Assembly (NCBI GenBank): GCA_902593795.1
Contig: CACJJR010000001.1
Location: 196,647 to 260,646 of the forward strand
DNA: 64,000 nucleotides
Reading direction: 5' to 3'
Source: an uncultured Candidatus Actinomarina sp.
Lineage (GTDB): Bacteria; Actinomycetota; Acidimicrobiia; Actinomarinales; Actinomarinaceae
Position numbers and translations under genes: made by a program. A model generated the notes under the pieces. The model was not told where the DNA came from. It did not search any database and worked only from the letters and a program-made list of their open reading frames with translations. The stretch's first letter is position 1; each line of letters opens with the position of its first letter. Below are positions 33,028 to 63,193 of the stretch, in pieces.

Positions 33028-33264
33028 ATGGAAATCAAACTTGAATTTTGTGTAGTTTGAAACTACACACCTCGTGCAGTTGGCACGATTGAAGACGTTT
33101 TAGAAATATATGGAAATAAAGTTACTTCTATTAATTTGATTCCAAGCGGTGGTGGAGTATTTGAATTTCATTTAAATGAAAAATTATTATTTTCAAAAAA
33201 AGAACTTGGAAGACACTCTGATGATGGAGAAATACTAAAACTAATCGAAGAAGAAGTTGGTTGA
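33028..33264 (+). CDS. selW: SelW-like (Rdx family) selenoprotein, in-frame UGA=Sec at 33058..33060
   Basis: MEIKLEFCVV-U-NYTPRAVG: CxxU redox motif; downstream LIPSGGGVFEF...FSKKELGRH matches bacterial SelW-like PGSGG.FE..WSKK..GRFP; 67 stop-free codons after the TGA. Confidence 0.8.
33072..33088 (+). promoter_or_regulatory. bacterial SECIS-like hairpin for the SelW-like gene
   Basis: 17-nt stem-loop tCGTGC-AGTTG-GCACGa beginning exactly 11 nt after UGA, GU in apical loop; fits the E. coli fdhF minimal SECIS geometry. Confidence 0.55.
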
Positions 33265-33995
33265 GTTTTCCATTTGATTTAACTTTTATAGAAGTAACTT
33301 TTATTGCAATATTACTTTTTATCAGCTCCTCAGTTCAAGGTGTTCTAGGTTTTGGCTTTGCGGTCATTGCTTCACCAATCATCATCCAAATCGAGCCTTA
33401 TCTTGTCCCCCAGTTGCTTTCTTTATTGGGATTGCCATTGGCAATTAGAGTTTTTTACAGAGAAAAAGACCAAGTTGACTTTTCTAAGGTTAAGCCACTT
33501 ATATTAGGTCGACTAATAGGCGGACCAATTGGACTTTTATTTCTGTTGAATCTACCTCAAAGATATCTTTCAATCTCTGTAGGTTTTATAGTATTTATAG
33601 CTGGCGTAGGCTCTTTTTTTGGTTGGGTCATAAATAGGAATAATGTAAATTCTTTTTTAGCAGGAACTTTTTCTGGTATTTTTGGAATGATTGCTGCAAT
33701 TGGGGGTCCCCCAGTTGCTTTACTATATAGAAATACCAAATCGCAAGAATTCAGACCATCACTAAACAGTGTATTTAGTATAGGAATTTTAATTACGCTA
33801 TCACTTTTAATCTTTAGCGGTAACTTATTATTGGACCATATAATACTTTTTCTTCTATTCATTCCATTTGTATTGGCCGGAATTAGATTTTCTAGTTCTC
33901 TTTTTTCCAAAGTATCTGATAACTTTATTGCGCAGTCAGTAACTTATTTTTCAATTATTTCTGGTCTTTATGTTATTTTGAGAAACATAAATTAG
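33261..33995 (+). CDS. TSUP/TauE-SafE (DUF81) family membrane transporter
   Basis: Two-repeat 4TM architecture with GxGxxxxP motifs (VLGFGFAVIASP; IAAIGGPPVALL); start overlaps SelW-like stop (GTTGA). Confidence 0.7.
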   Translation: MSFPFDLTFIEVTFIAILLFISSSVQGVLGFGFAVIASPIIIQIEPYLVPQLLSLLGLPLAIRVFYREKDQVDFSKVKPLILGRLIGGPIGLLFLLNLPQRYLSISVGFIVFIAGVGSFFGWVINRNNVNSFLAGTFSGIFGMIAAIGGPPVALLYRNTKSQEFRPSLNSVFSIGILITLSLLIFSGNLLLDHIILFLLFIPFVLAGIRFSSSLFSKVSDNFIAQSVTYFSIISGLYVILRNIN

Positions 33996-34032
33996 TTTAT
34001 TTCAATTAAGGGAATTATTAACATATAAGCAT

Positions 34033-35529
34033 ATGTTTATGAACGCCACTATTGCCGGCTTGCTATATTTCTTAAGTTTTCCTCCATATGATTTTTGGTA
34101 TTTAATTTTCCCCGCACTTTATATTTTTTATTTTTCACTGCTATCAAAAGAAAAGTCTTTTCTATCAGGTTTCATATTTGGGTGTGTTGCGTACGGTGTA
34201 ATTTTATTAGGAATTCAATCAATAGGACTGGAAGCCTGGATTCCACTAACAATTTTAATGGGATTGATGTACGGAATATTCGCAAAACTATTTTCTTATT
34301 TAAACGAAAAATCTGAAAACAATTTTTATGTTTTATTGTCAGTTGTAGCAGTTTTTGATTTACTTAGAGCGTATTTTCCATTTGGAGGTTTCCCTTGGGG
34401 TTTCCCATCAACAGTATTATTAACTGGCCCTATAGACAGCTTTTACATGACAGGTGCTCGTTTATCTTTTGAAGGTTTTGGACCAACGGGAGTCTCTCTT
34501 TTATTACAATCCCTTCCATTAATCATTTCACTCAGAGTCTTTTCAAAAAATAAACAAAAAAATTATTTTAAAAATTACATAATATTTCCATTAGTAGTTT
34601 TTTCAATATACGTTTTCAATCTTATAATCATTGATTTTAATTATCAGGATTCTGATACAGAAACATCAGAACTAAACATCGCAATCGTTCAAGGCAACAG
34701 TCCGTGTCCTGGTGCAAAAAACAGATGTACTAATGAAAGGCAAAAAATCTATGATAGCCATTTAACCCAAACTCAATCTCTTGATGGGAATTTTGATCTT
34801 ATAGTTTGGCCTGAAAGCTCAACAGGATTTAACAATGATCCTGGAATACATAGTAGAGTTCAAAACGATATTTCTACTCAAGCTTTGCGATTAGATTCAT
34901 TTTTTTTAATAGGAGGAGACAGACCTGTACAAAACCAATATTTTGAAAATTATGGAATCTTTATAAATCAAGATGGTGAGATTGTAGACCAGTATTTAAA
35001 ACAGCACCCTGTTCCCTTTGGAGAGTATATTCCATTTAGAAAATATTTAGATTGGATTCCCCCATTAGCATTAGTTCCTCGTGACATGATTAGGGGCGAT
35101 GGTCAAAAAATATTTATAGTAAACGATACAAAAATTTCAACTGTTATTTCATTTGAAGGTTCGTTCCAAAGATATATTCGAAACAGTGTCCAGGATGGTG
35201 CAGAATTAGTTGTAATCCTTACTAACCAAGCAAGCTACGGAGAGAGCGGCATGTCAGATCAATTTATATTAATGTCTAGGGCAAACGCAATTTCAAACGG
35301 TAGGCCGATTGTACACGCAGCAATAACTGGTAAATCAGCATTTATTGACCATAAGGGAAAAGTAATTTCCAAAACTGAATTATTTGAAACAGTAGTACTG
35401 ACTGAAAAAATTCACGCAAAACAGAAAGAAACTCCTTACAGCAAATATGGAAATTATTTAAATTATATTTTTATAGCATTTGGAGCAATCAGTCTTTTGT
35501 GGCCAAAGAATATATTGAAAAAAATTTAA
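34033..35529 (+). CDS. lnt: apolipoprotein N-acyltransferase
   Basis: N-terminal multi-TM domain plus C-terminal CN-hydrolase domain (E..K..C-type triad region, VWPES). Confidence 0.8.
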   Translation: MFMNATIAGLLYFLSFPPYDFWYLIFPALYIFYFSLLSKEKSFLSGFIFGCVAYGVILLGIQSIGLEAWIPLTILMGLMYGIFAKLFSYLNEKSENNFYVLLSVVAVFDLLRAYFPFGGFPWGFPSTVLLTGPIDSFYMTGARLSFEGFGPTGVSLLLQSLPLIISLRVFSKNKQKNYFKNYIIFPLVVFSIYVFNLIIIDFNYQDSDTETSELNIAIVQGNSPCPGAKNRCTNERQKIYDSHLTQTQSLDGNFDLIVWPESSTGFNNDPGIHSRVQNDISTQALRLDSFFLIGGDRPVQNQYFENYGIFINQDGEIVDQYLKQHPVPFGEYIPFRKYLDWIPPLALVPRDMIRGDGQKIFIVNDTKISTVISFEGSFQRYIRNSVQDGAELVVILTNQASYGESGMSDQFILMSRANAISNGRPIVHAAITGKSAFIDHKGKVISKTELFETVVLTEKIHAKQKETPYSKYGNYLNYIFIAFGAISLLWPKNILKKI

Positions 35530-35563
35530 AAAAGCCTATCTATGAAACTTGTTAGGGATTAAT

Positions 35564-36775
35564 TTATATTTCAGAATCAATTATTGGCAAGCCTCTTGCA
35601 GCAGCAGCTTCCACTGTACCGTCTTGAAATGCTCTTAGTCCAAACTTTGGTAAAACTGCAAAAATATGATCAAATATATCAGATTGTATACCTTCGTATT
35701 CAACCCAATCAATTGTATTTGTAAAGGTATAGAGCTCTAAAGGAACTCCTGTGGTAGTAGGCGAAAGTTGCCTTACTAGTAAAGTCATCGTTTCTGTATT
35801 GAGACCATCATGATTTTGTAAATACTTCACAAGGTATGCTCTAAAAGTTCCTAGGTTCGTGAGCTTTCTTTTTTCTTTTGCTTCATCTACCAAAGAGTTG
35901 AATTTTTCAATATCTTTTATTTTTTCAGAGAGATATTTATTTATAGTCGGTATTTTCATTAGCTTATCGATATCTTTTTGCTCCATAAACCTAACACTCG
36001 AAATATCTATGGAGATTGATCTTTTAATTCTTCTTCCCCCATACTCTGACATTCCTCTCCAGTTTTTTACAGATGTGGTGACGATCTTTGATGTAGGAAT
36101 CGTTGTGATGGTTTTATCCCAGTTTTGGACTTTAACTGTATGTAGGGCAATATCTATAACATCACCATCAGCACCATATTCTGGAACCTCAATCCAGTCT
36201 CCATTATTAATAATGTTATTCTGGCCAATCTGTACAGATGCTATAAATGATAAGATTGTGTCCTGGAACACTAACAATAGAACTGCAGTAAGGGCACCTA
36301 AGCCACTAATGTAGTAACTAACTGGCTGACCAGTCATAATTGCAAAAATAATTATGAATATAAAAGAGTTAACAACAATTTTAATAATTTGAACGTAGCC
36401 CTTAATTGGCTTATTTTTAAGTGATTTAATATTTTCTGAAACCTTATTTAACACATTCAACATTTCAAGAAGGGTAAGGCCAACGAATAATGTTAAAAGG
36501 GCACTAGAAACTCTTTTAGAAATTTCAGTATTAAATATTTCTAAATTGAACTGGGGTGTAGCAATTAAAAAATTAAATAAAACAAGAACGAATACATAAG
36601 AAACTCTATTTAAAAATTTTTTATCTAGGAATAGGTCGTCTATGTATGTACTTGTTTTACTGGCACCACGTTTAATTATTGGAAAAACTACTGATCGCAT
36701 TATTAGATAGGAAGCAGTAAGAATTCCTACTAAATAGGCAAGTGTAAGCAAGACTGAAGCTGTTAAATTATTCAC
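35564..36775 (-). CDS. mechanosensitive channel, MscS family
   Basis: N-terminal TMs followed by MscS beta-domain signature (pore-lining TM3 with Gly/Ala pattern, DGDVIDIAL..V). Confidence 0.8.
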   Translation of the reverse strand: MNNLTASVLLTLAYLVGILTASYLIMRSVVFPIIKRGASKTSTYIDDLFLDKKFLNRVSYVFVLVLFNFLIATPQFNLEIFNTEISKRVSSALLTLFVGLTLLEMLNVLNKVSENIKSLKNKPIKGYVQIIKIVVNSFIFIIIFAIMTGQPVSYYISGLGALTAVLLLVFQDTILSFIASVQIGQNNIINNGDWIEVPEYGADGDVIDIALHTVKVQNWDKTITTIPTSKIVTTSVKNWRGMSEYGGRRIKRSISIDISSVRFMEQKDIDKLMKIPTINKYLSEKIKDIEKFNSLVDEAKEKRKLTNLGTFRAYLVKYLQNHDGLNTETMTLLVRQLSPTTTGVPLELYTFTNTIDWVEYEGIQSDIFDHIFAVLPKFGLRAFQDGTVEAAAARGLPIIDSEI

Positions 36776-36789
36776 ACATTAATCCTAGT

Positions 36790-37530
36790 CTAAAAACCTT
36801 TTTGTTGACTTTTCCATGGGGCTGGTATGTCATTAATAAATTCATCAACACTCGGACCGCTCAAAGACTGAAGTCTATTTTGTCCAATGATATAAGTAAT
36901 GACCAATAAAATTAATGTTGTTTGATTTGATGATAAAAGTTTAATTGTTACAAGTATCTCAGGGGAATTGAAAAAAATTATTTGCAGACCACCCTTTATA
37001 AATAAGTATAAAGTCCAAATTATTGCAACCCTTGTATACGCAGGACGAACAAGTTCATGTAGGTACCACTCTTGGGGCCATTTTCTAATTGCCTTAGAAC
37101 TATAGATAGTGAATGGTTTCCTAATTATTATTGAAACAAAACCAACAACAGCAATTGAAATATCCCTAATGATTCCAGGAATAAAAAAACCAGAAGCACT
37201 TCCTTGAACTCTTGCCAGAAGAAGCGCTACTAATGTTCCTACTAATCCGTAGAATACAAATTTTAAATCTTGCTTTCTAAGAAGACGATAAAGAAACAAA
37301 AGTAGTAACAAAATACCCGTATATAAAATTGCCTGATTAAGAGTTGTAAAATTATTTGTTACTACAAAAAAGATTGGGGCAATTACAGAATCAAAAACCC
37401 CTTCTTGATTAAAATTTAATTCTTTTAGCTCTTCATTGATTTCTAAATATTTTTTATAAAATTTTCTCAATTTATTTGAACTTATTATTAAAAGATTCTT
37501 CATCATTTGAGAGCGAAGTTTCTTTTTCAA
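36790..37530 (-). CDS. polytopic membrane protein (DUF3159-like)
   Basis: ~6 TM; 5' end overlaps purB so true start is probably an internal Met. Confidence 0.4.
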   Translation of the reverse strand: MKKKLRSQMMKNLLIISSNKLRKFYKKYLEINEELKELNFNQEGVFDSVIAPIFFVVTNNFTTLNQAILYTGILLLLLFLYRLLRKQDLKFVFYGLVGTLVALLLARVQGSASGFFIPGIIRDISIAVVGFVSIIIRKPFTIYSSKAIRKWPQEWYLHELVRPAYTRVAIIWTLYLFIKGGLQIIFFNSPEILVTIKLLSSNQTTLILLVITYIIGQNRLQSLSGPSVDEFINDIPAPWKSQQKGF

Positions 37531-38746
37531 TAAAATCTAAAATTAAATTTGAATCAATCTTAAATTTTTCAGAGAGTTTTGTCACAATCTCTTTAGTTGA
37601 GAAATTCTCAAATGTTAAATCCTGTACCGATCTATAAGCTTCATCTCTATCAATATCATTTTTTACTAAGACTGAAAGAATTTTCTGACTGCTTAATTTA
37701 TCTGCTGCATCACTTAGATTTTTTTCTATAGCTTTGTAGTTTATATGAAGACCATTAAAAATTGATATTAAATCTTTAGTGATAAAACAGATTAAGTTAA
37801 AAGTATCTGGAAGGATAATTCTTTCAACGGAGGAATTAGAGATATCTCTCTCATGCCAGAGAACTATGTTTTCCATACTGCTTAACGCATAGCCCCTAAC
37901 AACTCTTGCTAATCCCGTAATTCTCTCACTTGCTATTGGATTTTTTTTATGTGGCATAGCTGATGAACCTTTTTGCCCATCTTTAAACGGTTCACTTAGT
38001 TCTGAAACTTCAGATCTTTGGTAACCCCTAATATTTGTTGCAATTCTTTCAAAACTACTAGCAAGTATTGCAAGGCTTGTGATAATTTCGGCATATCTAT
38101 CTCTTGCTACGATTTGGCTTGCGAAGATTTCCGCTTCTAGTCCAAGTTTTTTAAGAGTTGTTTCCTCAATATTTTCATCTACTACAGTGTGGTTTCCAAC
38201 TGGTCCACTTAGTTTTCCTATAGAAATAGTTTTTACACAATCTTCTAAGCGCTCCTTGTTTCTTTTTATTTCTTGGTGCCAGTTACCAAAAATATTTCCC
38301 AAAAAGGTTGTTTCGGCAAAAACGCCATGAGTCCTACCTATTACAGGCGTATGCATCTCCTGTTTAGCTTTGGCCTCAATCTGTATTAAAAGTTCATCTA
38401 GTAAGTCGATAGTTATAGATAAAGACTGTTTGATTAATAAGCTATTCGCTGTGTCAACTACGTCTGAGCTAGTGAGGCCATAATGAATCCAATTTGAATT
38501 GTCACCAACTTTGGATTGAAGTATATCGACAAATGAAGCTAAATCGTGATTTGTAATTTTCTCTCTTTCATATACTTCATCCTTTAAAACTTCAGTTTTT
38601 TCAATAACCTTAGCTATTCCACTTGGAGAAATATTATTTTCTTCTAAGGTTTCAAGGTATTTTTGTTCTACAAGTTTCCAGGTATCAAATTTATTTTGAT
38701 CATTCCAAATTTTTTCAATTTCGCGGTATTGGTATCTTTCAATCAT
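37472..38746 (-). CDS. purB: adenylosuccinate lyase
   Basis: Fumarase/ASL signature GSSAMPHKKNP, 424 aa. Confidence 0.85.
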   Translation of the reverse strand: MIERYQYREIEKIWNDQNKFDTWKLVEQKYLETLEENNISPSGIAKVIEKTEVLKDEVYEREKITNHDLASFVDILQSKVGDNSNWIHYGLTSSDVVDTANSLLIKQSLSITIDLLDELLIQIEAKAKQEMHTPVIGRTHGVFAETTFLGNIFGNWHQEIKRNKERLEDCVKTISIGKLSGPVGNHTVVDENIEETTLKKLGLEAEIFASQIVARDRYAEIITSLAILASSFERIATNIRGYQRSEVSELSEPFKDGQKGSSAMPHKKNPIASERITGLARVVRGYALSSMENIVLWHERDISNSSVERIILPDTFNLICFITKDLISIFNGLHINYKAIEKNLSDAADKLSSQKILSVLVKNDIDRDEAYRSVQDLTFENFSTKEIVTKLSEKFKIDSNLILDFIEKETSLSNDEESFNNKFK

Positions 38747-40019: not shown

Positions 40020-40172
40020 TTTTTCTCCTTAGGTACAACATAAAATAATAATGGATTTTTCTCGTAATCAGTAGGGGTTTCTTAGCGAATTTAGATTAAA
40101 TTGCAAATTATTAGTTTTTTTCAATAATTATTCATTGATACATAAACATAACTATATTAAATTGAATACAAT

Positions 40173-40192
40173 ACAGCTTCTTTAAAAGCTGT
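40173..40192 (+). promoter_or_regulatory. inverted repeat ACAGCTT-N6-AAGCTGT in 5' leader of the ABC substrate-binding gene
   Basis: 7-bp perfect arms 28 nt upstream of the TTG start / AAAAGGAG RBS. Confidence 0.3.
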
Positions 40193-50680: not shown

Positions 50681-51070
50681 TTAGAAGGTTTTTCTTATTG
50701 TTTGATTATTTTTTTTAACGATTTCGTTCTTATAACTTTTATGAATTTCTTTTGCTTTATTTTTAGAATCAATTTTTTCACTTGAGATTTCATTTTCTAA
50801 AGAAATAATTTTTTCTTGTAGTTCTTCAATCTTATCTCTCATCTCATAAATTATTTTTATACCATCTAAGTTGATTCCTCTTTGAGACAGATTTTGAATT
50901 TGTATCAACTTATCTATATCTTCTTGAGAATAACGTCTTGTTCCCCCTCCAGTCCTGAACGGTTTTATTAACCCTTTTTCTTCATAAGTCCGAATTGTTT
51001 GTTGATGTATGCCCGAGAGTGTAGAGGCTACGGATATAAAGTATATTGCGTTTGACTCTTCACTACTCAT
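50681..51070 (-). CDS. hspR: MerR-family heat-shock repressor HspR
   Basis: MerR HTH (ISVASTLSGIHQQTIRTYE), terminal gene of dnaK-grpE-dnaJ operon. Confidence 0.75.
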   Translation of the reverse strand: MSSEESNAIYFISVASTLSGIHQQTIRTYEEKGLIKPFRTGGGTRRYSQEDIDKLIQIQNLSQRGINLDGIKIIYEMRDKIEELQEKIISLENEISSEKIDSKNKAKEIHKSYKNEIVKKNNQTIRKTF

Positions 51071-51932
51071 CTAAATACTTTCTTGGAGAATCACCAGATT
51101 CAAACTGTTCTTTAAATTTTTCCAGATGTTTTTTTGCAGACCTTGATAAGTTCACAGGGGGAGTAATAAATACCTTCACATATAAATCACCGGACCTTCT
51201 TCCTTGAGGAGCTATACCCTCACCTCGAATTTTAAATGTTTTTCCACTAGGTGTTCCAGATGGAATTTTTAATGTGACAGATTTTGTTAATGTGGGAATC
51301 TTAATGCTCGCACCTAGGGCAGCTTCAGTAAAGAGTAGGGGGATTTCTAAAATTAAGTCCATATTGCTTCTTTTAAAGAACTTATGAGGCTGAACGGAAA
51401 CTTGTACCAATAGATCTCCATCAGGTGCCCCAGCAGCTCCAGGACCTCCACGGCCCCTAAGCCTAATTACACTTCCATTATCTACACCTGCTGGAACTTT
51501 TATTTTTATCGATTCGTTTTCTATAGGTAGTACTACTTCAATACCAGAGGCAGCTTCAGCAAATGATATAGTGATATTAGTTTGGTATGTTTGACCTTTT
51601 CTTCTTCCGCCAAAACCAAAAATATCACCAAGGTTTTCAAAGATATCTCCAAAGTCATCAACAGTAAAACCCTGACTAGTGAAACCTCCAAAACCTGAAC
51701 TTCCCATTGCTCTGATTTGATCATATTCTTGACGCTTCCTATCATCGCCTAATACAGCGTGTGCTTCAGAAATTTCTTTAAACTTTTTTTCTGCTTCAAT
51801 GTTTTCTGGGTTTAAATCTGGATGATTTTCCCTTGCTAATTTTTTGTAAGCTTTTTTTATTTCATCTGAGGTTGCATTTTGGGGTACGCCAAGTGTGGCA
51901 TAGAAATTTTTATCTAGCCAATCTCTACTCAC
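51063..51932 (-). CDS. dnaJ: J-domain co-chaperone DnaJ, class B (no zinc-finger domain)
   Basis: J-domain HPD motif, G/F-rich linker, C-terminal beta domains; zero Cys residues. Confidence 0.8.
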   Translation of the reverse strand: MSRDWLDKNFYATLGVPQNATSDEIKKAYKKLARENHPDLNPENIEAEKKFKEISEAHAVLGDDRKRQEYDQIRAMGSSGFGGFTSQGFTVDDFGDIFENLGDIFGFGGRRKGQTYQTNITISFAEAASGIEVVLPIENESIKIKVPAGVDNGSVIRLRGRGGPGAAGAPDGDLLVQVSVQPHKFFKRSNMDLILEIPLLFTEAALGASIKIPTLTKSVTLKIPSGTPSGKTFKIRGEGIAPQGRRSGDLYVKVFITPPVNLSRSAKKHLEKFKEQFESGDSPRKYLDE

Positions 51933-52413
51933 TTTTAACCTTAACCATGGCAGGTCGAATTAGGTTCCCTTGAAATTGATACCCTTTACGTAAAACTACA
52001 TCAATTTTTTGTATATTACCTTCACCAGTATGTTCAACAGCCTCATGTAAAGCAGGGTCAAAATCCTCTCCAGCATCTCCAATTTCTGTGACTTGAAGAC
52101 TTTCTAAAACTGACGACAATAGGCTGCTAAATGTTTCTACTTCTTTGGCAATTTTATCTTGAGACATAGCCATTTCAAAATTGTCTATAAGAGGAAATAA
52201 AGTATTTACAAAATACGCAATAGAGGCTGAGCCAATATTTTCCTTCTCTTTTTCAGATCTTTTTTTATAATTATCAAAGTCAGCAGCAAGTCTTAAGTAG
52301 TCGTCTTTTATTTTTTCGTACTGAGAAAGAGGGACGCTTGATTCATCAGCTTCTATATTTTCATTTTCAGAAGAATCATCAGGTTCTTCAGTATGTTCCT
52401 CTTCGTTACTCAT
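51925..52413 (-). CDS. grpE: nucleotide exchange factor GrpE
   Basis: Acidic N-terminus, coiled-coil then GrpE C-terminal beta domain; overlaps dnaK and dnaJ. Confidence 0.8.
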
Positions 52414-54214
52414 CTTCTATGACTTCACCTTCTACCACGTCATCGGATTCACTTGAAGACGGATCAGGAGTATCATTTTGTGTCTCTGAATATAACTTTT
52501 CAGCAAATGATTGACTAGCTTTAGAAAGCTCTTCAATAGCAACCTTGAGATCATTAACTTCGTTATCTTCATTTTCTAAGAGTTTCTTTAGATTTTCATT
52601 TGCATCAGTAATTGATTTAATCTCATCATCAGTTGCTTTATCTTTGTTGTCTTCCAACATTTTTTCTGTTGAAGTAACCATTCCTTCAGCCATATTTCTT
52701 GTCTCGACAAGATCTTTCTTTTTTGCATCTTCATTTGCATGTTGTTCTGCATCTTTTATCATTCGGTCTATCTCATCGTCTTCTAAAGCAGTTCCACCAG
52801 TAATTGTTATTGCTTGCTCCTTACCAGTGCCAAGGTCTTTAGCATTTACATTGACAATTCCATTTGCATCAATATCAAAAGTTACCTCTATTTGAGGTGT
52901 ACCAGCCATTGCTGCAGGAATATCGGTTAATGTGAATCTACCCAAAGATTTGTTACCAGAGGCCATATCTCTTTCACCTTGCAAGATGTGTATTTCAACC
53001 TGAGTTTGATTGTTTTCAGCAGTACTAAATACTTCTGACCTCTTAGTTGGAATAGTAGTATTTCTTTCGATCATCTTTGTCATGATTCCACCTTTTGTTT
53101 CAACACCAAGTGTAAGTGGAGTGACATCAAGTAAAAGAACATCCTTTACATCACCTTTAAGAACGCCAGCTTGTATGGCAGCACCAGAAGCAACCACTTC
53201 GTCTGGGTTGACACCTTTATGAGGATCTTTACCAGTTAAAGCTTTAACAAGCTCTTGCACTGATGGCATTCTTGTAGAACCACCAACTAATATTATGTGA
53301 TTTATATCTGAAAATTTCATTCCAGCATCAGACAAAGCATTTTCAACAGGTGCTTTTGTACGCTCTACTAAATCAGCTGTAATTTTTTCAAATTCAGACC
53401 TACTTAACTTTTCTAATAAATGTTGGGGACCAGCATCGTTAGCAGTAATGAAAGGTAAATTAATTTCTGTTTCACTAGTCGAAGAAAGTTCAATTTTTGC
53501 TTTCTCTGCACCTTCCTGAATTCTCTGGATAGCCATTTTGTCTTTTGATAAATCAATACCTGTTGATGATTTAAATTTATCAATTAACCAGTCCATAACT
53601 CTCTGATCCCAGTCATCACCACCTAGTTTTGAATCACCAGAGGTTGACTTTACCTCAAAGACTCCTTCAGAAATTTCCAGAATAGAAACATCGAATGTAC
53701 CACCACCCAGATCAAATACTAAAATTTTTTGATCTTGATTATTTTCTAAACCATACGCAAGTGATGCAGCTGTAGGTTCGTTAATGATTCTTAATACGTT
53801 TAATCCAGCTATCTGACCTGCTTCTTTAGTCGCTTGTCTTTCTGCGTCATTAAAATATGCAGGCACAGTAATAACAGCTTCAGTAACGTCATCTCCTAAG
53901 TATGCTTCAGCATCCCTTTTTAATTTTTGAAGTATTCTTGCTGATATTTCTTGTGGAGTATAATCTTTCCCTTCAAAGCTTTCTTTCCAATCAGTTCCGA
54001 TGTGTCTTTTAATTGATCTTATGGTGTTATCAGGATTTGTTATTGCTTGTCTTTTTGCAAGCTCTCCAACCAGTACTTCTTCAGACTTGAAAGCAACTAT
54101 GGATGGAGTCGTCCTATTTCCCTCTGCATTCGCAATTACAGTTGGTTCGCCGCCTTCTAATACTGCAACAACACTATTTGTTGTTCCTAAATCAATTCCT
54201 ACAGCTTTTCCCAT
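52406..54214 (-). CDS. dnaK: molecular chaperone DnaK (Hsp70)
   Basis: [29 protein letters not shown] Hsp70 signatures. Confidence 0.95.
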
Positions 54215-54244: not shown

Positions 54245-54448
54245 TTATGAGATAGGTTCTTGTTCTCTTGGTAAATGGCCTCTTACCCTTGGGTAGGAGA
54301 CAGGTGCATGAAGAAAACAAAATTTCTTTTTGTTGTACACACTTATTACTGTTTCACAAGCATCAAATGCGCATATACGACCTGTAGTGTATTTTTTTGA
54401 CCTTCTAACACCAGGCTTAACTTGAGATGCAGTTAATGTTCCGCTCAT
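54245..54448 (-). CDS. small CCCH zinc-ribbon-like protein (paralog of 30832..31026), unknown family
   Basis: 67 aa; ~55% identical to the copZ-upstream paralog; 30-nt gap to dnaK start on same strand. Confidence 0.5.
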   Translation of the reverse strand: MSGTLTASQVKPGVRRSKKYTTGRICAFDACETVISVYNKKKFCFLHAPVSYPRVRGHLPREQEPIS

Positions 54449-54613: not shown

Positions 54614-55408
54614 ATGGAAAAATTAGATATTCACATAGTTGGTTTGGGTAATTTAGGATCTGCATTCTTAAAAGGTTTAAATAATGTAGAAGATATCAAC
54701 TTGTTTTTATACGATGATTTAGAATCTGTTAGAAATTCTGTTAACAATGAATTTTCTATTATTCCTAAAGACTCAATAATTTCTATTCAAAATGGAGTTG
54801 TTATTCTTTGTATTAAACCTCAAAATATAAATAATTTTTTTGCAAATAACAAAAATAAAATAAGTCCAGATGTTTTAATTTGTTCCCCTGTTGCTGGGCT
54901 AGAAATCAAAACAATTGAGAGCTTTATGGGAAATAAAGTTCTCCGAATAATGCCTAACTTGCTTATCGGCAACAACAAAGGCTTCATTCCGTATGTTTCA
55001 AATTATGATGGAGATTATTTCACTTTTAATGAGAATGTCTTGGAGAAACTTGGTGTTACAAAAGAATTTGACGAGGACATGTTTCCACTTATCACAGCTT
55101 TATCGGGAAGTGGTCCTGCCTGGTACTATGAGTTATCAAGTCAGTTGGTTAACTCTGGCCAAGAATTAGGACTTAGCTTAGATGATTCCGAAATGATAAT
55201 TAAAGAACTCATAAAAGCTCTTCCAGCATTGGTTGCAGAAGACATTTCATTTAAAGATTTAGTCAATAAAGTAAAGTCACCTAATGGGACAACTGAGGCA
55301 GGCCTCAATTCGCTTAATAATGATTCATTTGATAGAATAATTCACGATGCTATTCAAAAAGCAACTCATAAATCTACTGAAATATCAAGAGAACTAAGTA
55401 GTGAATAA
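54614..55408 (+). CDS. pyrroline-5-carboxylate reductase-like NAD(P)-dependent oxidoreductase
   Basis: N-terminal Rossmann GxGxxG (VGLGNLGSAF) and ProC-like C-terminal dimerisation region. Confidence 0.55.
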   Translation: MEKLDIHIVGLGNLGSAFLKGLNNVEDINLFLYDDLESVRNSVNNEFSIIPKDSIISIQNGVVILCIKPQNINNFFANNKNKISPDVLICSPVAGLEIKTIESFMGNKVLRIMPNLLIGNNKGFIPYVSNYDGDYFTFNENVLEKLGVTKEFDEDMFPLITALSGSGPAWYYELSSQLVNSGQELGLSLDDSEMIIKELIKALPALVAEDISFKDLVNKVKSPNGTTEAGLNSLNNDSFDRIIHDAIQKATHKSTEISRELSSE

Positions 55409-57560
55409 GTTTTTAAACAAATATAAAGCAAATGATTACGTGCTTTTGTTTTCTGCAGGAGCAGCAGTAGGAACTCTTTTTTTGTGGGCGGCAAGCTATG
55501 TATTTCCAGAGGGTGAAATTGTAGGTGGAAGAAGAGTATTTGAAAATATTCCTAAAGTGCTTCAATACATATTTTATGTTCTAAGTGCTACAACAATTTA
55601 TATATCAGGTTATTTATTTTCTCTTAGAGTAAAAAACTGGACAAGAGGCAAAGAGGAGAAGCGAAATGTAAAGTTGTCACAGAGAATTTTCAATCTTTTT
55701 GATGGTTTAACTATGAGAACTGTACTTAGATTTAGAGCTGCCGGGTTAATGCACTCGCTTATTTATATTGGGTTCTTAGGTTTGTTTGCTGGGACTATTA
55801 CATTAGAGATTCATCACCTAATGCCACCTTCATTGAAGTTTCTACAGGGCACAACTTATATCGTATATTCATTTACCTTAGAGTTAGCTACTATTGCATA
55901 TTTAATAGGTCTTTTTTGGGCTTTAGCAAGACGTTTAATTGGTACTGAGTACAGAATTAAAACAAAAACAACAATAGATGATTATTTAACTCTTTCCTTA
56001 TTAATTTTTATTGGTATTTCAGGTATTACTACTGAAGCTGGAAGAATAGCCTTAGAAAACTTTCCAGATTATGAAAGATGGTCATTTATTGGATACGCTG
56101 TAGGTGAAATTTTAAATCTTTCAAACCCTGGTCTCTTTCATAGAATTTCATGGGTTCTGCACGTTGTATCATTTTTTGTTTTCCTAATTGCTATTCCATT
56201 ATCAAAGTTGAGACATATTTTTACATCACCAATAAATATGTTTATGTCTCCAAAAGATAGACCAAAAGGCGCAATGAAATTTATTGGAAATTTACTAGAG
56301 GCAGAAGATATAGATTCTGTTGGTGCTGGAATTGTTGACCACTTTACCTGGAAGCAATTAATGGATTTAGATGCCTGTACGGTTTGCGGTCGCTGTACTT
56401 CAGTATGTCCTGCTAATCAAACTGGTAAATCTTTAGATCCTAGAGAGATTATTTTAAAAGTTGGTCAAGTAATGTCTGAATCAGGAAAACCTGCTGTACC
56501 AGCTACTGTTTCAACACCGGGCCCCTTACGCGTTAATTCTGACAATGTATTTGAAAGAATAACTTCTGAAGAGCTATGGGCTTGCACCTCTTGCAAGGCA
56601 TGTGATGAGATTTGTCCTGTAAATATAGAAATTTTGGACAAGATATTGGATATGAGAAGGCATTTAGCTTTAATGGAATCGGACTTTCCTGCTGAGCTTG
56701 GTAAAGCATATGTTGCGATGGAGAACTCATCAAACCCTTGGGGAGCATCTCAAAACGATAGATTGAAATGGACTGAAGATCTGGACTTTGAAGTTCCCGT
56801 TATTGATGAAAAAAACCATGAAGAATATGATTATCTATATTGGATAGGATGCGCGGGGGCTTTTGACGATAGAAATGTTCCTGTAACAAAAGCAGTAGCC
56901 ACTCTTTTAAAGCGAGCCGGGGTTTCTTTTGCTGTACTTGGTCCTAAAGAAGTATGTACAGGAGATTCAGCAAGAAGAACCGGAAATGAATTTGTATTTC
57001 AACAATTAGCAATTCAAAATATCGAAAATATGAATAATCTAAAAGTAGATAAAATTATCACTCAATGCCCACACTGTTTTAATACAATAAAAAATGAGTA
57101 CCCACAATTAGGTGGTAATTATGAAGTAATTCATCATAGCCAATTATTAACTGAATTAGTACAGTCTGGAAGAATTGAAGTTGGAACAAGCGATAAGCCT
57201 TATAAGATAACTTATCATGATTCCTGCTACCTAGGCAGACATAATGATATTTATACTGCTCCACGAGAAATAGTAGGCTCTATTGGTGGAATTGAAATTC
57301 GTGAAATGAAGAGACAGGGAACACAAAGCTTCTGCTGTGGTGCCGGAGGTGGAAGAATGTGGATGGAAGAATCTGTAGGGAAAAAAGTCAATATTGAGAG
57401 ATCTCAGGAAGCTATTGAAACAGGTGCGGATGAAGTTGCAGTTGCTTGTCCTTTTTGTTACATAATGATGGATGATGGTGTTAAGGAATTGGGTTATGGC
57501 GACAATGTCAGAGTAAGAGACGTATCTTTAATTCTCTTAGATAATCTTAAGAAAGATTAA
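55401..57560 (+). CDS. membrane-anchored Fe-S oxidoreductase (HdrD/GlpC-like: 2x[4Fe-4S] + CCG domains)
   Basis: N-terminal ~6 TM, two ferredoxin motifs (CTVCGRCTSVCP; CTSCKACDEICP), two Cys-rich CCG domains (CCGAGGG). Confidence 0.75.
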   Translation: MNKFLNKYKANDYVLLFSAGAAVGTLFLWAASYVFPEGEIVGGRRVFENIPKVLQYIFYVLSATTIYISGYLFSLRVKNWTRGKEEKRNVKLSQRIFNLFDGLTMRTVLRFRAAGLMHSLIYIGFLGLFAGTITLEIHHLMPPSLKFLQGTTYIVYSFTLELATIAYLIGLFWALARRLIGTEYRIKTKTTIDDYLTLSLLIFIGISGITTEAGRIALENFPDYERWSFIGYAVGEILNLSNPGLFHRISWVLHVVSFFVFLIAIPLSKLRHIFTSPINMFMSPKDRPKGAMKFIGNLLEAEDIDSVGAGIVDHFTWKQLMDLDACTVCGRCTSVCPANQTGKSLDPREIILKVGQVMSESGKPAVPATVSTPGPLRVNSDNVFERITSEELWACTSCKACDEICPVNIEILDKILDMRRHLALMESDFPAELGKAYVAMENSSNPWGASQNDRLKWTEDLDFEVPVIDEKNHEEYDYLYWIGCAGAFDDRNVPVTKAVATLLKRAGVSFAVLGPKEVCTGDSARRTGNEFVFQQLAIQNIENMNNLKVDKIITQCPHCFNTIKNEYPQLGGNYEVIHHSQLLTELVQSGRIEVGTSDKPYKITYHDSCYLGRHNDIYTAPREIVGSIGGIEIREMKRQGTQSFCCGAGGGRMWMEESVGKKVNIERSQEAIETGADEVAVACPFCYIMMDDGVKELGYGDNVRVRDVSLILLDNLKKD

Positions 57561-57874: not shown

Positions 57875-57906
57875 AAGATAGATTTTAAATAAGGAAAAAA
57901 TAAATA

Positions 57907-58524
57907 ATGAGTGAAAGACAAATATTCTCCAAAATCTTACGTCTTGATAAATATATATACAATGAGCTGATTGTCCTTGACGGAGCTTTACAAAGAGGAA
58001 TAGCAATTTTCTTGGCCGTTACAACTTTAACTACCTTGAGTGCTTTTAGACTTTTTAATAGCTTAATTGAATTCCTTGAGAGCAATCTTGTTTTGTTTAG
58101 TGGTGAAATGTCTGACGAAGAGTTTGCAATGTTTAAAGCCTTGATTGATGAACTTTCTATAATTTTTATTCAACAAGACTCTACCACTACACTACTCTTC
58201 TCATCAATAGCTTCAACAACAGTTACTTCTCTGATAGGTCTTGTTATTTGCTTTTTAATTCTTAAATTTTTGTTTAGAAAAGAACCCAGGCCAATTGATT
58301 TAATTATTATTTCGTTCTTTTCAAGCGCTCCTGGTTTACTTGTATTTCCAGTTCTTTTTATTTCAGATACCTTTATTCAAGCAATATTAGTACTAGTGAC
58401 TTCTTTATACGCTCTTGTTGCTTTTGGATCTGGACTTAAGCAGGTTTATTTATTAAGAAACATTGAAGTAATTTTGGTAATAATAGCTCTTACTTTTGGC
58501 GGTTCAATACTGGGAGGATTTTGA
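57907..58524 (+). CDS. polytopic membrane protein (Yip1-like topology)
   Basis: 205 aa, cytoplasmic N-term then ~5 TM. Confidence 0.35.
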   Translation: MSERQIFSKILRLDKYIYNELIVLDGALQRGIAIFLAVTTLTTLSAFRLFNSLIEFLESNLVLFSGEMSDEEFAMFKALIDELSIIFIQQDSTTTLLFSSIASTTVTSLIGLVICFLILKFLFRKEPRPIDLIIISFFSSAPGLLVFPVLFISDTFIQAILVLVTSLYALVAFGSGLKQVYLLRNIEVILVIIALTFGGSILGGF

Positions 58525-59123
58525 TTATGAACGCAGCAGTTATACTTGCGGCTGGTGATTCAAGCAGAATGGGCTTCCCAAAACAGCTAGCAGAAGTAAA
58601 AGAGAAATCTTTACTACAACTAATTATTGATAAAGTTAATAATAAATTTGAATATTCTTCTGTTGTTTTAGGCTCAGAAAATGAAGTTATTTCAGAAAAA
58701 GTTGATTTTAAAAATTCAAACATCTTGATAAATGAAAACTGGTCAGAGGGCATTACATCTTCTATTAGGACATCATTGTTCTTTTATCAAGGTCAAAAAG
58801 AAATCGATAATGTAATATTTTTTCTTGCTGATCAACCAGAGGTAGAAAGTGAAGTTATAGATAGCCTGATAAATGATCATCATGATGGTACAAAAATTTT
58901 AATTCCACAATATAGATACAAATTAGGATTTCCTATTTTAGTTCCAAGATTATTTTGGCCAAAGCTAGAACTTATAACACAAGACGATGATGTGGATGAA
59001 GAAAAATCTGTTTTTCAGGATTTTGATTTAATCGATTTCTTTATTTCATCAGAAACTGAAACTAAAAATTTAAATTTTAATTTTTTAGAGCCAATCGATT
59101 ATGACGAAGAAAAAGATTTTTAA
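58521..59123 (+). CDS. MobA/MocA-like molybdopterin nucleotidyltransferase-family protein
   Basis: ILAAGDSSRMG..K N-terminal NTP-transferase motif, NENWSEGITSS, FFLADQP. Confidence 0.65.
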   Translation: MIMNAAVILAAGDSSRMGFPKQLAEVKEKSLLQLIIDKVNNKFEYSSVVLGSENEVISEKVDFKNSNILINENWSEGITSSIRTSLFFYQGQKEIDNVIFFLADQPEVESEVIDSLINDHHDGTKILIPQYRYKLGFPILVPRLFWPKLELITQDDDVDEEKSVFQDFDLIDFFISSETETKNLNFNFLEPIDYDEEKDF

Positions 59124-59186
59124 GAGTGGGAAAAACTCTTAAAAAAAATCGTTTGTTTATCTAAATTATTTTGTAAAATTTAAAAC

Positions 59187-59591
59187 ATGAATTCAATTGA
59201 CTCTATAAATGGTATGACACATACCGAAGCAACAAAATTAAGAAGAGCTAGAGTCAGAACAACAACTACTTTCTTACAGATCGCATCTTCCAGGTCTGGT
59301 AGGGCACTACTTACAAAAGAAACCGGTATAAGCTCCCCAAAACTTTTACACTGGGCAAGAAGAGCAGAATTAATGAAGATTAAAAATCTTGGAAGAGATT
59401 ACGCAGACTTACTTGAAGCAGCTGGTGTAGAAAGTGTGTCTGAGTTAAAACGTAGAAACCCTGAATCTCTTCATGAAATGATGGCAAAGATTAATTTAAA
59501 AAGAAATATTGTGGACAGGATGCCTTCTTTAAAAAGAGTATCAAAGTGGATTGACGATTCTAAAGATATAGAAATTAAGGTTTCTTCATAA
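59187..59591 (+). CDS. hypothetical protein, DUF4332-like (tandem helix-hairpin-helix-like repeats)
   Basis: 134 aa with two LL.AAGV.S...L-type repeats. Confidence 0.4.
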   Translation: MNSIDSINGMTHTEATKLRRARVRTTTTFLQIASSRSGRALLTKETGISSPKLLHWARRAELMKIKNLGRDYADLLEAAGVESVSELKRRNPESLHEMMAKINLKRNIVDRMPSLKRVSKWIDDSKDIEIKVSS

Positions 59592-59617
59592 CCAAACATC
59601 CCATCTATCATTAAATT

Positions 59618-61324
59618 GTGAATAAAAAAACCTTAAGAATTACTGGTGCTCAAATGTCATTTCCAGTTGGCGCGATACAGAAGAACAAGCAAACTATCTT
59701 AGACTGTTTTGAAATAGCCGAAGAAAAAGAAACTGACATCTTGATATTCCCAGAGTTGGCTTTAACAGGATATCCTCCAGAAGATTTACTCTTGAGAGAA
59801 AGCTTTATTGGTAAAAACTTTGCAGTTCTAGAAGAGCTTGCAGAGTTTTCTAGCAATACCAGTGGTGTTATTGGTTTTGTCGATAGAAACTTAGATGAAG
59901 ACCATACAGATAAGCAAAAAAGAGGCATAGCAAATGCCGCAGCAATAATTCAAAATGGTGATGTAAAAGGAATTTATCATAAGTGTTACCTTCCAAATTA
60001 TTCTGTTTTTGACGAAGCAAGGTATTTTGCTAAAGGAAATAACCCTGGCAACCTTTTTTGGTACAACGATGTTGCAATAGGAATAAGTATTTGTGAAGAT
60101 ATTTGGATTGATGAAGGGCCTTCATTACAACAGGTTGAAAACGGAGCATCTTTAATAATAAATATAAATGCTTCACCTTATGACCAAAACAAAAGTAACT
60201 CCCGAAAAGAACTTGTAATCAGTCAGGCAAAAAAACTTAAAGTACCAATAATTTATTTAAATATGGTTGGCGGTCAGGATGAACTTGTTTTTGATGGCGG
60301 TTCATTTGTTGTAGATGGGAAAGGAAAAGTAATTTATCAAGCCAAGCAATTTGAGGAAGAATTATTTCATATTGATATAGATCTTGAAGTAAAAAAACAA
60401 CCTACTGGATCAACTTTAGAGATTAGAGAAAAAAGCACAGAACTAGAAAATTTACAGTCATCTGAAATACTCTCAAAAAATGAATCTTTATACGCAGCAC
60501 TAGAACTTGGCCTTTTCGACTATGTAAAGAAAAATAATTTTGAAAAAGTACTTATAGGGCTATCCGGAGGAATTGATTCAGCATTAACAGCTACAGTTGC
60601 GGTAGATGCTCTTGGTTCTAAAAATGTTATTGGTGTTGCAATGCCATCTAAATATAATTCAAAAGAATCTCTTCTTGATGCCAAGTCATTAGCTGAAAAT
60701 CTTAAAATAGAATTTAAGACTATAGAAATTGAAAGAATAGTAGAAAATTTTAGAGCTACATTAACTGGCGTAATCAATGAAGAGCTTGGACAAACAACTG
60801 ATGAAAATATACAGTCAAGGGTTAGGGGTAATATTTTAATGGCTCTTTCTAACCAAACCGGAGCCATGGTTGTATCTACAGGCAATAAATCAGAAATGGC
60901 AGTTGGCTATTCAACACTTTACGGCGATCTAGCGGGAGGCTTTGCGTTATTAAAAGATTTATATAAAACAGAAGTTTATAATTTATCAAATTTTAGAAAC
61001 ACAATTTCCAAGGTAATACCACAAAACACAATTGATAAGGAGCCAAGTGCAGAACTTAGGCCAAATCAGTTTGATAAAGATTCACTTCCAGAATATGACC
61101 TGCTTGATAAAATATTACATTTGTACATTGAGGAAGACAGCTCTTCAGAAAAAATTATCTCTACTGGAATTGATGAAAAAATTGTTTATGATGTCTTGTC
61201 TAAAGTTGATAGAAATGAATATAAAAGAAAACAGGTTGCTCCAGGGGTAAAATTAACTGAAAAAGCATTTGGCAAAGATAGAAGAATGCCGATTACAAAT
61301 ACATATATTAGAGAACGGGATTAA
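59618..61324 (+). CDS. nadE: glutamine-dependent NAD+ synthetase
   Basis: N-terminal CN-hydrolase domain plus C-terminal NAD-synthetase PP-loop (GLSGGIDSA). Confidence 0.85.
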   Translation: MNKKTLRITGAQMSFPVGAIQKNKQTILDCFEIAEEKETDILIFPELALTGYPPEDLLLRESFIGKNFAVLEELAEFSSNTSGVIGFVDRNLDEDHTDKQKRGIANAAAIIQNGDVKGIYHKCYLPNYSVFDEARYFAKGNNPGNLFWYNDVAIGISICEDIWIDEGPSLQQVENGASLIININASPYDQNKSNSRKELVISQAKKLKVPIIYLNMVGGQDELVFDGGSFVVDGKGKVIYQAKQFEEELFHIDIDLEVKKQPTGSTLEIREKSTELENLQSSEILSKNESLYAALELGLFDYVKKNNFEKVLIGLSGGIDSALTATVAVDALGSKNVIGVAMPSKYNSKESLLDAKSLAENLKIEFKTIEIERIVENFRATLTGVINEELGQTTDENIQSRVRGNILMALSNQTGAMVVSTGNKSEMAVGYSTLYGDLAGGFALLKDLYKTEVYNLSNFRNTISKVIPQNTIDKEPSAELRPNQFDKDSLPEYDLLDKILHLYIEEDSSSEKIISTGIDEKIVYDVLSKVDRNEYKRKQVAPGVKLTEKAFGKDRRMPITNTYIRERD

Positions 61325-61329
61325 GCAGC

Positions 61330-62154
61330 GTGTATTTTATAAATGAGGAAGAGGTTGAGAAAGAGCACTTTCACATACCAGTTGAAAATTTAGCTGTATG
61401 GCGAGGTGATGGAGTTTTTGAAGCATTAAAGATACATGATTATTACCCTTTTGGTATAGACAAGCATATTGAAAGACTAAAGCAGTCTTGTAGAAAACAA
61501 TTATTTGAAAATGTTGATTTCAACCTTATTGAGAATAATATTTTAAAAATTGCGTCACAGTATAAAAATGGCTACGTCAGGATTCTTATTTTGAGAAATA
61601 GCTCTGATGAAGATTTTACAATTTATTCTTTTTATCAACTGCCAATTAATATTCCAGAGAATTATAAATTAGAATCTCAACCTGCTCCCTGGCATCCTGG
61701 GGGAGATTTTGAAGTTAATAGTGATAATATTGTTGGGTCTAAATCAACTTCATATGCATACAATATTAAACAGACAAGAGAAGCTATAAGGAATGGGTTT
61801 AGTGATGCGTTGCTTCTTAGTAGCAAAGGAGTAGTTCTAGAAGGCCCCACGTTCTCAGTGGGGTGGATTAAAGATGAGATAATATATGTTCCAGATTTAG
61901 ACCTGGGGATACTCGATTCAATTACTAGGAAATATTTGCTTGAATTTGGAAGTAAAAATAAAATTAATACAGCAGTATCTAGAGTGACTATAGATGAGTT
62001 GTATATGGTAGATACAGTTTTTGCTATGTCCACTGCCAAACATGGAATATTTGTATCTAAAATTGATGACAAAGAGTACAAGCAATCACCTTTATTGAAC
62101 ACTATTCAAGATTTATTCAAGAAAGAAGTTTTAAAGGAAAAACAAGAAAGTTAA
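61330..62154 (+). CDS. class IV (fold type IV) PLP-dependent aminotransferase / aminodeoxychorismate-lyase-like
   Basis: BCAT/PabC-like length and N-terminal RGDGVFE pattern. Confidence 0.7.
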   Translation: MYFINEEEVEKEHFHIPVENLAVWRGDGVFEALKIHDYYPFGIDKHIERLKQSCRKQLFENVDFNLIENNILKIASQYKNGYVRILILRNSSDEDFTIYSFYQLPINIPENYKLESQPAPWHPGGDFEVNSDNIVGSKSTSYAYNIKQTREAIRNGFSDALLLSSKGVVLEGPTFSVGWIKDEIIYVPDLDLGILDSITRKYLLEFGSKNKINTAVSRVTIDELYMVDTVFAMSTAKHGIFVSKIDDKEYKQSPLLNTIQDLFKKEVLKEKQES

Positions 62155-62164
62155 GGAGGGTAAA

Positions 62165-63193
62165 GTGAGACTTACAGAGTATTCTCATGGCTCTGGTTGA
62201 GCATGTAAACTCTCCCAAGGAGAGCTTGCTCAGGTTCTGAAGCAATTACAACAAAATAATCACAACAATTCTGAAATTTTAGTTGGACTAGATAACCCTG
62301 ATGATGGCGCAGTTATTGATTTGGGAAATAATTTAAAAATAGTTCAAACTGTAGATTTTTTTACACCTATCCTTGATGACCCTTATGACTGGGGTAGAGT
62401 TGCTGCTGCGAATGCATTGTCTGACATATACGCCATGGGTGGAGTGCCTATTTCTTCACTTCAGTTAGTAAGTTGGCCAAGAGATGAGATAGGATTTGAT
62501 ATCTTATCAAGAGTTATTAATGGCGGTTCAGATGTGATGAAATCAGCAAAGTGCAGTATTGTAGGCGGGCATAGTATTGATGATAAAGAGCCAAAATATG
62601 GCTTTGCTGTGACAGGGATAATTAATGAAAAAATATATAAAAAAACTGAAATTAAAAAAGGTGATAGACTCTTTTTGACCAAACCACTTGGCTCAGGAAT
62701 AATTGCGACAGCAATCAAAAAAGGTAAAGCTGAAAAAGAAGCTATAAGTCAAGTTACAGAGATTATGACAACATTAAATGATAGAGGTTTAGCAGTAGCC
62801 AATAATCTAAATGCCAACGCTGTTACAGATGTCACAGGCTTTGGACTTCTTGGGCATTTAAGTGAAATGTTGATTAATGATAATTTGTCAGCAAATTTAA
62901 TCTTTAACGACATTCCAATAATTGAGTATGCAAAAAAATATTTTGAGGAGGGAATTTATCCGTCTGGCAGTCAAAGAAATTTTAATACTTTGAAGGATTC
63001 CATAACATTTGAAAATGAAGACGAAGCATTACTATTATCTGATGCTCAAACTAGTGGAGGTCTTTTAATTGCTGCCCCTAAGGAAACAAATGTAGATTTT
63101 AGCGACATTGAAAAATCACATGGAGTAATAATAAAAGAAATTGGGAATATAACTGATAGATATAATAAAAAAATAAATATTATTAGTAATTGA
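62165..63193 (+). CDS. selD: selenophosphate synthetase (selenide, water dikinase), Sec-containing; UGA=Sec at 62198..62200
   Basis: GTG start 10 nt after AAGGAGGG RBS; RLTEYSHGSG-U-ACK aligns with E. coli RLTQYSHGAGCGCK (Sec at Cys17 position); downstream DFFTPILDDPYDWGRVAAANALSDIYAMGG matches SelD core. Confidence 0.85.
62207..62227 (+). promoter_or_regulatory. candidate SECIS hairpin for selD
   Basis: CTCTCC-CAA-GGAGAG stem-loop (extendable by 2 bp) starting 9 nt after UGA. Confidence 0.4.

Follow-up and report, generated by a model that had tools for sequence, protein, structure and literature searches.

The 64,000-nt stretch of DNA analysed here (contig CACJJR010000001.1, positions 196,647 to 260,646; hereafter the window) belongs, by its sequence, to Candidatus Actinomarina, order Actinomarinales, class Acidimicrobiia. 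It carries two genes that are each interrupted by one in-frame TGA, the first encoding a small SelW-like protein and the second, selD, encoding selenophosphate synthetase. As argued below, both UGA codons very probably encode selenocysteine (Sec). The genes, the codons in question and the signals around them are listed here, with SECIS standing for selenocysteine insertion sequence.

33028..33264 (+): SelW-like gene of the Rdx family with a CVVU redox motif; ATG start, TGA stop at 33262-33264, 78 codons
33058..33060 (+): UGA predicted to be read as Sec, codon 11 of the SelW-like gene; all homologues examined have TGA here
33072..33088 (+): candidate SECIS hairpin of the SelW-like gene, UCGUGC-AGUUG-GCACGA; 6-bp stem and GU-containing 5-nt loop, beginning 11 nt after the UGA
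62153..62160 (+): Shine-Dalgarno sequence AAGGAGGG, evident on inspection, 4 nt upstream of the GTG start of selD
62165..63193 (+): selD, selenophosphate synthetase (selenide, water dikinase), itself a predicted selenoprotein; GTG start, TGA stop at 63191-63193, 342 codons
62198..62200 (+): UGA predicted to be read as Sec, codon 12 of selD, equivalent to Cys17 of E. coli SelD; TGA in 13/13 Actinomarinales selD loci
62205..62229 (+): candidate SECIS hairpin of selD, GUAA.CUCUCC-CAA-GGAGAG.UUGC; upper 6-bp helix starting 9 nt after the UGA

A sequence-only reading of the window had proposed two independent UGA-Sec genes, SelW-like and SelD, 29 kb apart. Their coordinates proved to be exact, and both TGAs are conserved, each at a catalytic Cys/Sec position. 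The gene set of the window comprises 59 genes with 19,587 codons and covers 92% of its length; in-frame TGA occurs in it only twice, in the SelW-like gene and in selD. The presence of these two codons is not due to chance. Otherwise TGA is an ordinary stop of the standard code, ending nine genes, among which are both selenoprotein genes, and tryptophan is written as TGG 208 times. No TGA was found in the window at conserved Trp or Gly positions, as would be seen in recoded genomes (table 4 or 25).

The N-terminus of SelD reads VRLTEYSHGSG-U-ACKLSQGEL..., with one internal TGA in the gene. The protein matches NCBIfam TIGR00476 with 379.7 bits (cut-off 125) over residues 2-307, together with the AIRS and AIRS_C domains, and it scores 265 bits against E. 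coli SelD (3U0O), with U12 and K15 aligned to C17 and K20. A score above the curated cut-off, both domains and an N-terminal loop bearing Sec/Cys and Lys, as expected for a full-length SelD, are thus all present. The Shine-Dalgarno sequence before the GTG at 62165 indicates that translation of selD starts upstream of the TGA. As in other bacterial SelD proteins, Sec or Cys is followed by Lys within a glycine-rich loop (GSG-U-ACK here, GAG-C-GCK in E. coli). Sec-containing SelD occurs in other bacteria, e.g. Haemophilus influenzae and Aquifex aeolicus, and nothing essential distinguishes the Actinomarina protein from these; its identity to the E. coli protein is moderate, as reflected in the bit score given above.

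The SelW-like protein begins with MEIKLEFCVV-U-NYTPRAVGT..., and its gene also contains one internal TGA only. With this TGA entered as Cys, the protein matches Pfam Rdx (PF10262) with 56.8 bits (cut-off 22.6) and NCBIfam TIGR02174 (CXXU_selWTH) with 45.1 bits (cut-off 34.2), both matches covering residues 3-74 and crossing the TGA. Its CVVU motif aligns with CTQC of the solved Rdx-family proteins 2FA8, 3DEX and 2OJL, U taking the place of the second Cys of CxxC. Both scores above the curated cut-offs and the location of CxxU at the start of the domain place it in the Rdx / SelT-SelW-SelH family. Such a protein most likely acts as a small thiol/selenol oxidoreductase. There is no Shine-Dalgarno sequence upstream of its ATG (33003-33027, +). 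An extended -10-like element, TGATA(C/G)TAT, ends 6 nt before the ATG and is conserved in the window and in a distant lineage (L142), which suggests that the mRNA could be leaderless; a simple promoter scan made no call on this element and does not decide the matter.

When one genome per GTDB species was scanned with the SelD protein, only Actinomarinales were returned. The best match was the single-cell genome Candidatus Actinomarina sp. AG-390-E09 (96% amino acid identity), followed by other Actinomarina metagenome-assembled genomes (65-81%) and by MED-G99 and TMED189 of the Actinomarinales (58%). Thirteen selD loci were compared, namely the window, L001-L009 and L159-L161, with amino acid identities of 58-100%. 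All 13 have TGA at the same codon, preceded by the peptide RLT(E/Q)(Y/F)SHGSG, and in each GGAGG is located before an ATG or GTG start. Within the 11 codons before the TGA, the variable sites number 3, 1 and 8 at codon positions 1, 2 and 3, respectively, and six codons vary synonymously only. A search with the SelW-like protein gave 97 homologues, and every full-length one, down to 49% identity, keeps the TGA (seen as W in table-4 translations). At the DNA level, for which 25 loci were compared, all five codon changes before the TGA in the closest group are synonymous.

The candidate hairpins, like the E. coli fdhF-type SECIS, lie within the coding sequence, a short way 3' of the UGA. For the SelW-like gene, compared over seven distinct relatives, 95.2% of the cells scored are paired versus 9-45% in slid controls. 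Two pairs are changed on both sides (U-A to C-G and U-A to A-U), a level of covariation reached by 8 of 500 shuffles, and in the most distant homologue (L152) a hairpin of different sequence is again present at the same place. For selD, 87.5% of the cells are paired versus 21-46% in slid controls. No Rfam family matched the candidate hairpins. The position and loop content of the SelW-like hairpin (11-nt spacing, GU loop) fit the minimal SECIS of E. coli fdhF. In contrast to fdhF-type elements, the stems are much shorter (5-6 bp) and no bulged U is evident. Both hairpins may act as SECIS elements, with putative binding of SelB. Another structure, a perfect 9-bp hairpin at 33049-33069 (+), UGUGUAGUU-UGA-AACUACACA, holds the Sec codon of the SelW-like gene in its 3-nt loop. 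It is not conserved in relatives and was rejected as a functional element. It arises from the codons for CVV/NYT, is broken by synonymous changes in L142 and L155, and is probably incidental.

The sequence-only reading could not place the use of Sec in such genomes in any prior description, but one exists. Nielsen & Lui ('Actinomarina, resolved', bioRxiv 10.64898/2026.04.03.716425, 7 April 2026; hereafter the preprint) found selA, selC and selD in 84/84 complete Actinomarina genomes and stated the trait to be previously unreported. They detected selB only under the KofamScan threshold (268 vs 306) and found no YbbB, and no SECIS with Rfam models. About five selenoproteins per genome were predicted with deep-Sep, including a Sec-SelD of 342-346 aa; a 78-aa 'uncharacterized' family was the most abundant selenoprotein and the remaining families were not named. 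Measured from dnaA as fractions of the chromosome, selD was located at 0.075-0.09 and selC at 0.10-0.11, with selA on the other side of the origin. The authors also supposed a Cys-type SelD in about half of the genomes. The Sec trait of Actinomarina is thus already known, and what is reported here is a confirmation with small additions.

Among the seven tRNA genes of the window none is a tRNA-Sec, according to ARAGORN and Rfam. Likewise, no homologue of SelA or SelB was found in the window, either with Pfam/NCBIfam on essentially all open reading frames (ORFs) or by tblastn with the E. coli proteins. The 10-kb flanks of selD in eight GTDB genomes contain no tRNA-Sec, selA or selB, and exact-protein look-ups for the left flank of the window returned a 1.3-kb contig or nothing. 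On the right side, a walk to selC was guided by Supplementary Table 8 of the preprint, where the distance from selD to selC is 0.022-0.026 genome lengths. A gene for a short-chain dehydrogenase (SDR), the rightmost of L002, led to loci L159-L161, which hold selD and about 19 kb beyond it. The genes encountered there encode a hydrolase, GT4, RmuC, an acyl-CoA dehydrogenase, PfkB, a copper-binding protein and the SDR, then isocitrate lyase, the cta/cox operon, a Na/Ca exchanger and a luciferase-like protein. A fragment of the luciferase-like gene led in turn to L162-L164 and on through genes for M1 peptidase, 6-phosphogluconate dehydrogenase and HflX. In this region, ARAGORN identified a tRNA-Sec with anticodon TCA at L162:3711-3803 and L163:4087-4179. 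It scores 74.7 (L162) and 75.4 bits (L163) with Rfam RF01852, for which the gathering score is 47. L163 is syntenic with L159, with 78% nucleotide identity over the cox genes and a GC content of 0.34. The chained distance between selD and selC, about 26 kb, agrees with the table of the preprint. In these relatives the tRNA-Sec gene stands alone between a divergent gene for a 198-aa protein with a helix-turn-helix domain and an unannotated 106-aa ORF followed by hflX (L162:3660-4160, L163:4036-4540), and it adjoins none of selA, selB and selD.

Taken together, the organism of the window in all likelihood uses the standard bacterial selenocysteine system. The window would be a near-origin segment of the Candidatus Actinomarina chromosome. 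SelD, encoded in the window, would make selenophosphate. Seryl-tRNA synthetase (SerRS), also encoded there, would charge tRNA-Sec with serine, which is the first step of Sec synthesis; selC would lie outside the window, some 26 kb beyond selD. From Ser-tRNA-Sec, SelA would then produce Sec-tRNA-Sec, and a SelB-type factor would deliver the latter to UGAs that have a short coding-sequence hairpin within 9-11 nt. The sequences establish the two recoded TGAs and their conservation, the ordinary use of TGA elsewhere, selD, and selC in syntenic relatives; selA, selB, the insertion of Sec itself and a SECIS role of the hairpins are inferred or drawn from the literature. The sites so decoded would be the CxxU redox motif of the 78-aa SelW-like protein and the glycine-rich N-terminal loop of SelD. 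Since the UGA lies in this loop, the synthesis of SelD would depend on its own product, a dependence already on record (Guimaraes et al. 1996, as referred to in the preprint).

Several observations speak against this view of a standard system. The sequence-only reading had called for a check of selA, selB and selC. The third was found in syntenic relatives; neither of the first two was seen in the Actinomarina loci examined. Moreover, the relatives with tRNA-Sec are 78% identical at the nucleotide level to the window's strain, so that selC is independently confirmed for the genus and not for the strain itself. In metagenome contigs, selA was looked for with a hand-made low-GC DNA pattern for the motif GDKLLGGPQ of the pyridoxal phosphate site, and the resulting loci, at least 120, were screened by GC content, tetranucleotide z-score correlation, gene content and SelD identity. 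No Actinomarina-like contig was found among those listed. The best candidates among the matches listed, a Firmicute-like contig (L126) and a marine lineage with the gene order rplS-MFS-selA-selB (L031, L094, L128), are not Actinomarina, and in viral contigs the motif gave two irrelevant matches. The selB calls of the preprint, being below threshold (268 vs 306), could be cross-hits from another translational GTPase. As for the hairpins, that of selD shows a single double-sided change and almost no covariation, so that its conservation could be due to coding constraint, and in folding energy the hairpins do not significantly surpass shuffled sequences (z from -0.03 to -2.15).

The explanations that compete with Sec decoding differ in what they do with the two TGAs. 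If these were true stops, the genes would be pseudogenes or assembly errors, or else the downstream products would be the functional ones. Public gene calling indeed yields exactly such products, a SelD of 290 aa from TTG 62321 and a SelW-like fragment of 42 aa (P0083) from TTG 33136, in line with the claim of the sequence-only reading that ORF calling truncates or misses both genes. Truncated C-terminal fragments of SelW-like proteins are labelled 'selenoprotein W-related protein' by JGI, and GCA_045563255.1, a contig of which is 99.7% identical at the nucleotide level to positions 61491-64000 of the window, has no product on record at selD. A SelD starting at TTG 62321 would lose the N-terminal loop with its catalytic Cys/Sec and Lys, and the short SelW-like product would lose the entire CxxU motif. 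The TGA and the preceding 10-11 codons are conserved in independent single-cell genomes, metagenome-assembled genomes and metagenomes from many samples, most substitutions upstream of it are synonymous, and the upstream start of selD has a strong Shine-Dalgarno sequence before it. Conservation of the TGA combined with mainly synonymous upstream change excludes, for practical purposes, pseudogenes, assembly errors and downstream starts, and we regard true stops as extremely improbable. A reassigned code, with TGA as a sense codon for Trp (table 4) or Gly (table 25), is implicitly assumed by several public pipelines. Some of the ENA/JGI calls of the SelW-like gene (P0001-P0079), made with table 4 on short low-GC contigs, give W at both the internal and the terminal TGA, resulting in an 84-aa product, and a small AT-rich genome does resemble known table-4 lineages. 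This reading was rejected on the codon counts and the TGA terminators: Trp is TGG in 208 cases, only two of 19,587 codons are in-frame TGAs, and TGA is the terminator of nine genes whose products match their families over the full length. The two internal TGAs occupy catalytic Cys/Sec positions, not Trp or Gly ones, and tRNA-Sec is present in relatives. A reassigned code can be given virtually no credence.

Two further explanations accept the genes and concern the selenium pathway itself. SelD could serve a pathway other than Sec, namely tRNA selenouridine or the selenium-dependent cofactor of molybdenum hydroxylases, Sec being then over-interpreted. SelD alone cannot distinguish between the three selenium traits, organisms with an orphan SelD exist, some Actinobacteria included (Peng et al. 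2016), and a gene for a MobA-like NTP transferase is located nearby (58521-59123). Against this, making the SelD of the window requires Sec insertion, a Sec codon is conserved in another, unrelated gene as well, and relatives possess selC. No YbbB was found in the 84 genomes of the preprint; in the window, there is no ybbB/selU among the annotated ORFs, which were not searched specifically for it. Any additional use of selenium would not replace the Sec trait, and we consider it highly improbable that SelD serves only another pathway. Alternatively, Sec could be inserted non-canonically, with SelB strongly reduced or absent and delivery relying on minimal hairpins or EF-Tu. The sole published evidence for selB is below threshold, no SelB was found in the approximately 100 kb examined around the two genes, and the hairpins are very small (5-6 bp). 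The 268-bit match would nevertheless be most simply explained by a divergent true SelB, and the search covers only about 9% of the genome. In the SelW-like hairpin the spacing (11 nt) is the usual one and the loop contains GU, presumably as in the minimal SECIS of fdhF. To our knowledge, all Sec-decoding bacteria have SelB. We consider such a non-canonical route very unlikely. In broader terms, a strongly reduced or non-canonical delivery of Sec in Actinomarina, with a SelB too divergent to reach the KEGG profile threshold, or with none, and with minimal 5-6-bp hairpins located 9-11 nt after the UGA, seems to us unlikely; if true, it would represent the smallest natural bacterial apparatus for Sec recoding.

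The system found here is that of the preprint, in the same genus and with the same trait, and the positions of selD and selC in the preprint fit the window and the walk to selC. Our results differ in three respects. The 78-aa family is identified as an Rdx/SelW-like protein with a CxxU motif, and short hairpins are described 9-11 nt after the UGA. In addition, all 13 selD loci have TGA, several of them with a GTG start (VRLT instead of MRLT). From these sequences, SelD looks to be of the Sec type in every lineage sampled, which questions the supposition of Cys forms. The estimate of a Cys-type SelD in about half of the genomes may come from grouping the predictions by their first 20 residues, an 'MRLT' prefix splitting off the GTG starts. 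In Supplementary Table 8, the 32 genomes marked 'selC in HVR = Y' (hypervariable region) have selA, selC and selD at about 1-x of their positions in the other 52, for example 0.109/0.890/0.911 (Y) versus 0.90/0.105/0.082 (N), and the spacing between selC and selD is constant. Mirrored positions of this kind suggest that the chromosomes were oriented inconsistently, not that selC is mobile, and the reported location of selC inside a hypervariable region looks to be an artefact of this. More speculatively, the 'K07090' selenoprotein group of the preprint may be the TauE/SafE neighbour of the SelW-like gene, assigned through same-strand overlap mapping.

Both families had been met before in the sea. 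In the Global Ocean Sampling survey of Zhang & Gladyshev (2008, PMC2398784), SelW-like proteins and SelD made up the two selenoprotein families of widest distribution in surface-ocean metagenomes, with 427 Sec forms versus 56 Cys forms for the SelW-like CxxU; the reads were not assigned to organisms. The window holds exactly this pair, in an abundant surface-ocean bacterium, and ties the organism to the two commonest marine selenoprotein families. Actinomarina may supply a large share of these reads. Sec-using Actinobacteria, as well as those with an orphan SelD, have also been listed by Peng et al. (2016). That a four-gene recoding system is kept for a handful of proteins in a free-living genome of 1.1 Mb suggests that Sec is valuable to a photoheterotroph of the sunlit ocean. 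In public annotations of the Actinomarina lineage both genes are truncated, dropped or mistranslated. As a consequence, automated metabolic reconstructions will miss them or assign a wrong genetic code to short contigs.

The other features of the window mentioned in this work are the following.

7444-7698 (-): CrgA-like protein, below the curated cut-off, full length
8535-10304 (-): PknB with four PASTA domains
10307-10960 (-): PP2C phosphatase
12046..13299 (+): serS, seryl-tRNA synthetase; TIGR00414, 462.5 bits; housekeeping context, not a dedicated part of the Sec system
27485-27580 (+): bS22-like protein, below the curated cut-off, full length
33261..33995 (+): TauE/SafE-family membrane protein (KEGG K07090 type); Pfam PF01925, 71.2 bits; TTG start
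50681-54214 (-): dnaK-grpE-dnaJ-hspR

The window was said in the sequence-only reading to come from a streamlined low-GC actinobacterium, on the strength of pknB-PP2C, crgA-like, bS22-like and dnaK-hspR genes. All these markers are present, the organism being Ca. Actinomarina, and the GC content is 0.32-0.37 throughout the window (about 33%). The same reading expected further hidden selenoproteins, such as peroxiredoxins, thioredoxin-like proteins and formate dehydrogenase. This expectation was not borne out within the range examined: scanned for TGA read-through, the window with its intergenic gaps and the next 18 kb gave only shadow ORFs and no further TGA-interrupted gene. After serS come all four tRNA-Ser isoacceptors (CGA, GGA, TGA, GCT) and a tRNA-Arg, accompanied by a tadA-like deaminase gene, the region 12046-14833 forming an unusually complete serine-decoding cluster. 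At 55401-57560 (+), between proC-like and MobA-like genes, is a gene for a 719-aa membrane protein in which a nitrate-reductase-gamma-like domain is joined to a 4Fe-4S dicluster and to two CCG domains (heterodisulfide-reductase-like), with no evident link to selenium.

The TTG start of the TauE/SafE gene overlaps the stop of the SelW-like gene by 4 nt (gTTGA), and this overlap makes it probable that the two genes are co-translated. The pair is kept in L132-L141, and the TauE/SafE gene occurs in this lineage only. The TauE/SafE gene is absent from the P0057 sister lineage (L142-L151), which is on record on 892 contigs and has neither this gene nor an M3 peptidase gene beside its SelW-like gene. 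A functional link of the SelW-like protein with the TauE-type exporter, or with the copper ATPase and CopZ genes nearby, may be envisaged. Finally, the window encodes two small Cys-rich paralogues, 64-67 aa long, at 30832-31026 (-) and 54245-54448 (-), which share the pattern C..C...S.YN....CF.HAP..YPRVRG and have no Pfam or NCBIfam match. One of them adjoins the CopZ/CopA copper ATPase genes and, in the P0057 lineage, is the immediate neighbour of the SelW-like gene, and the other is located upstream of dnaK.

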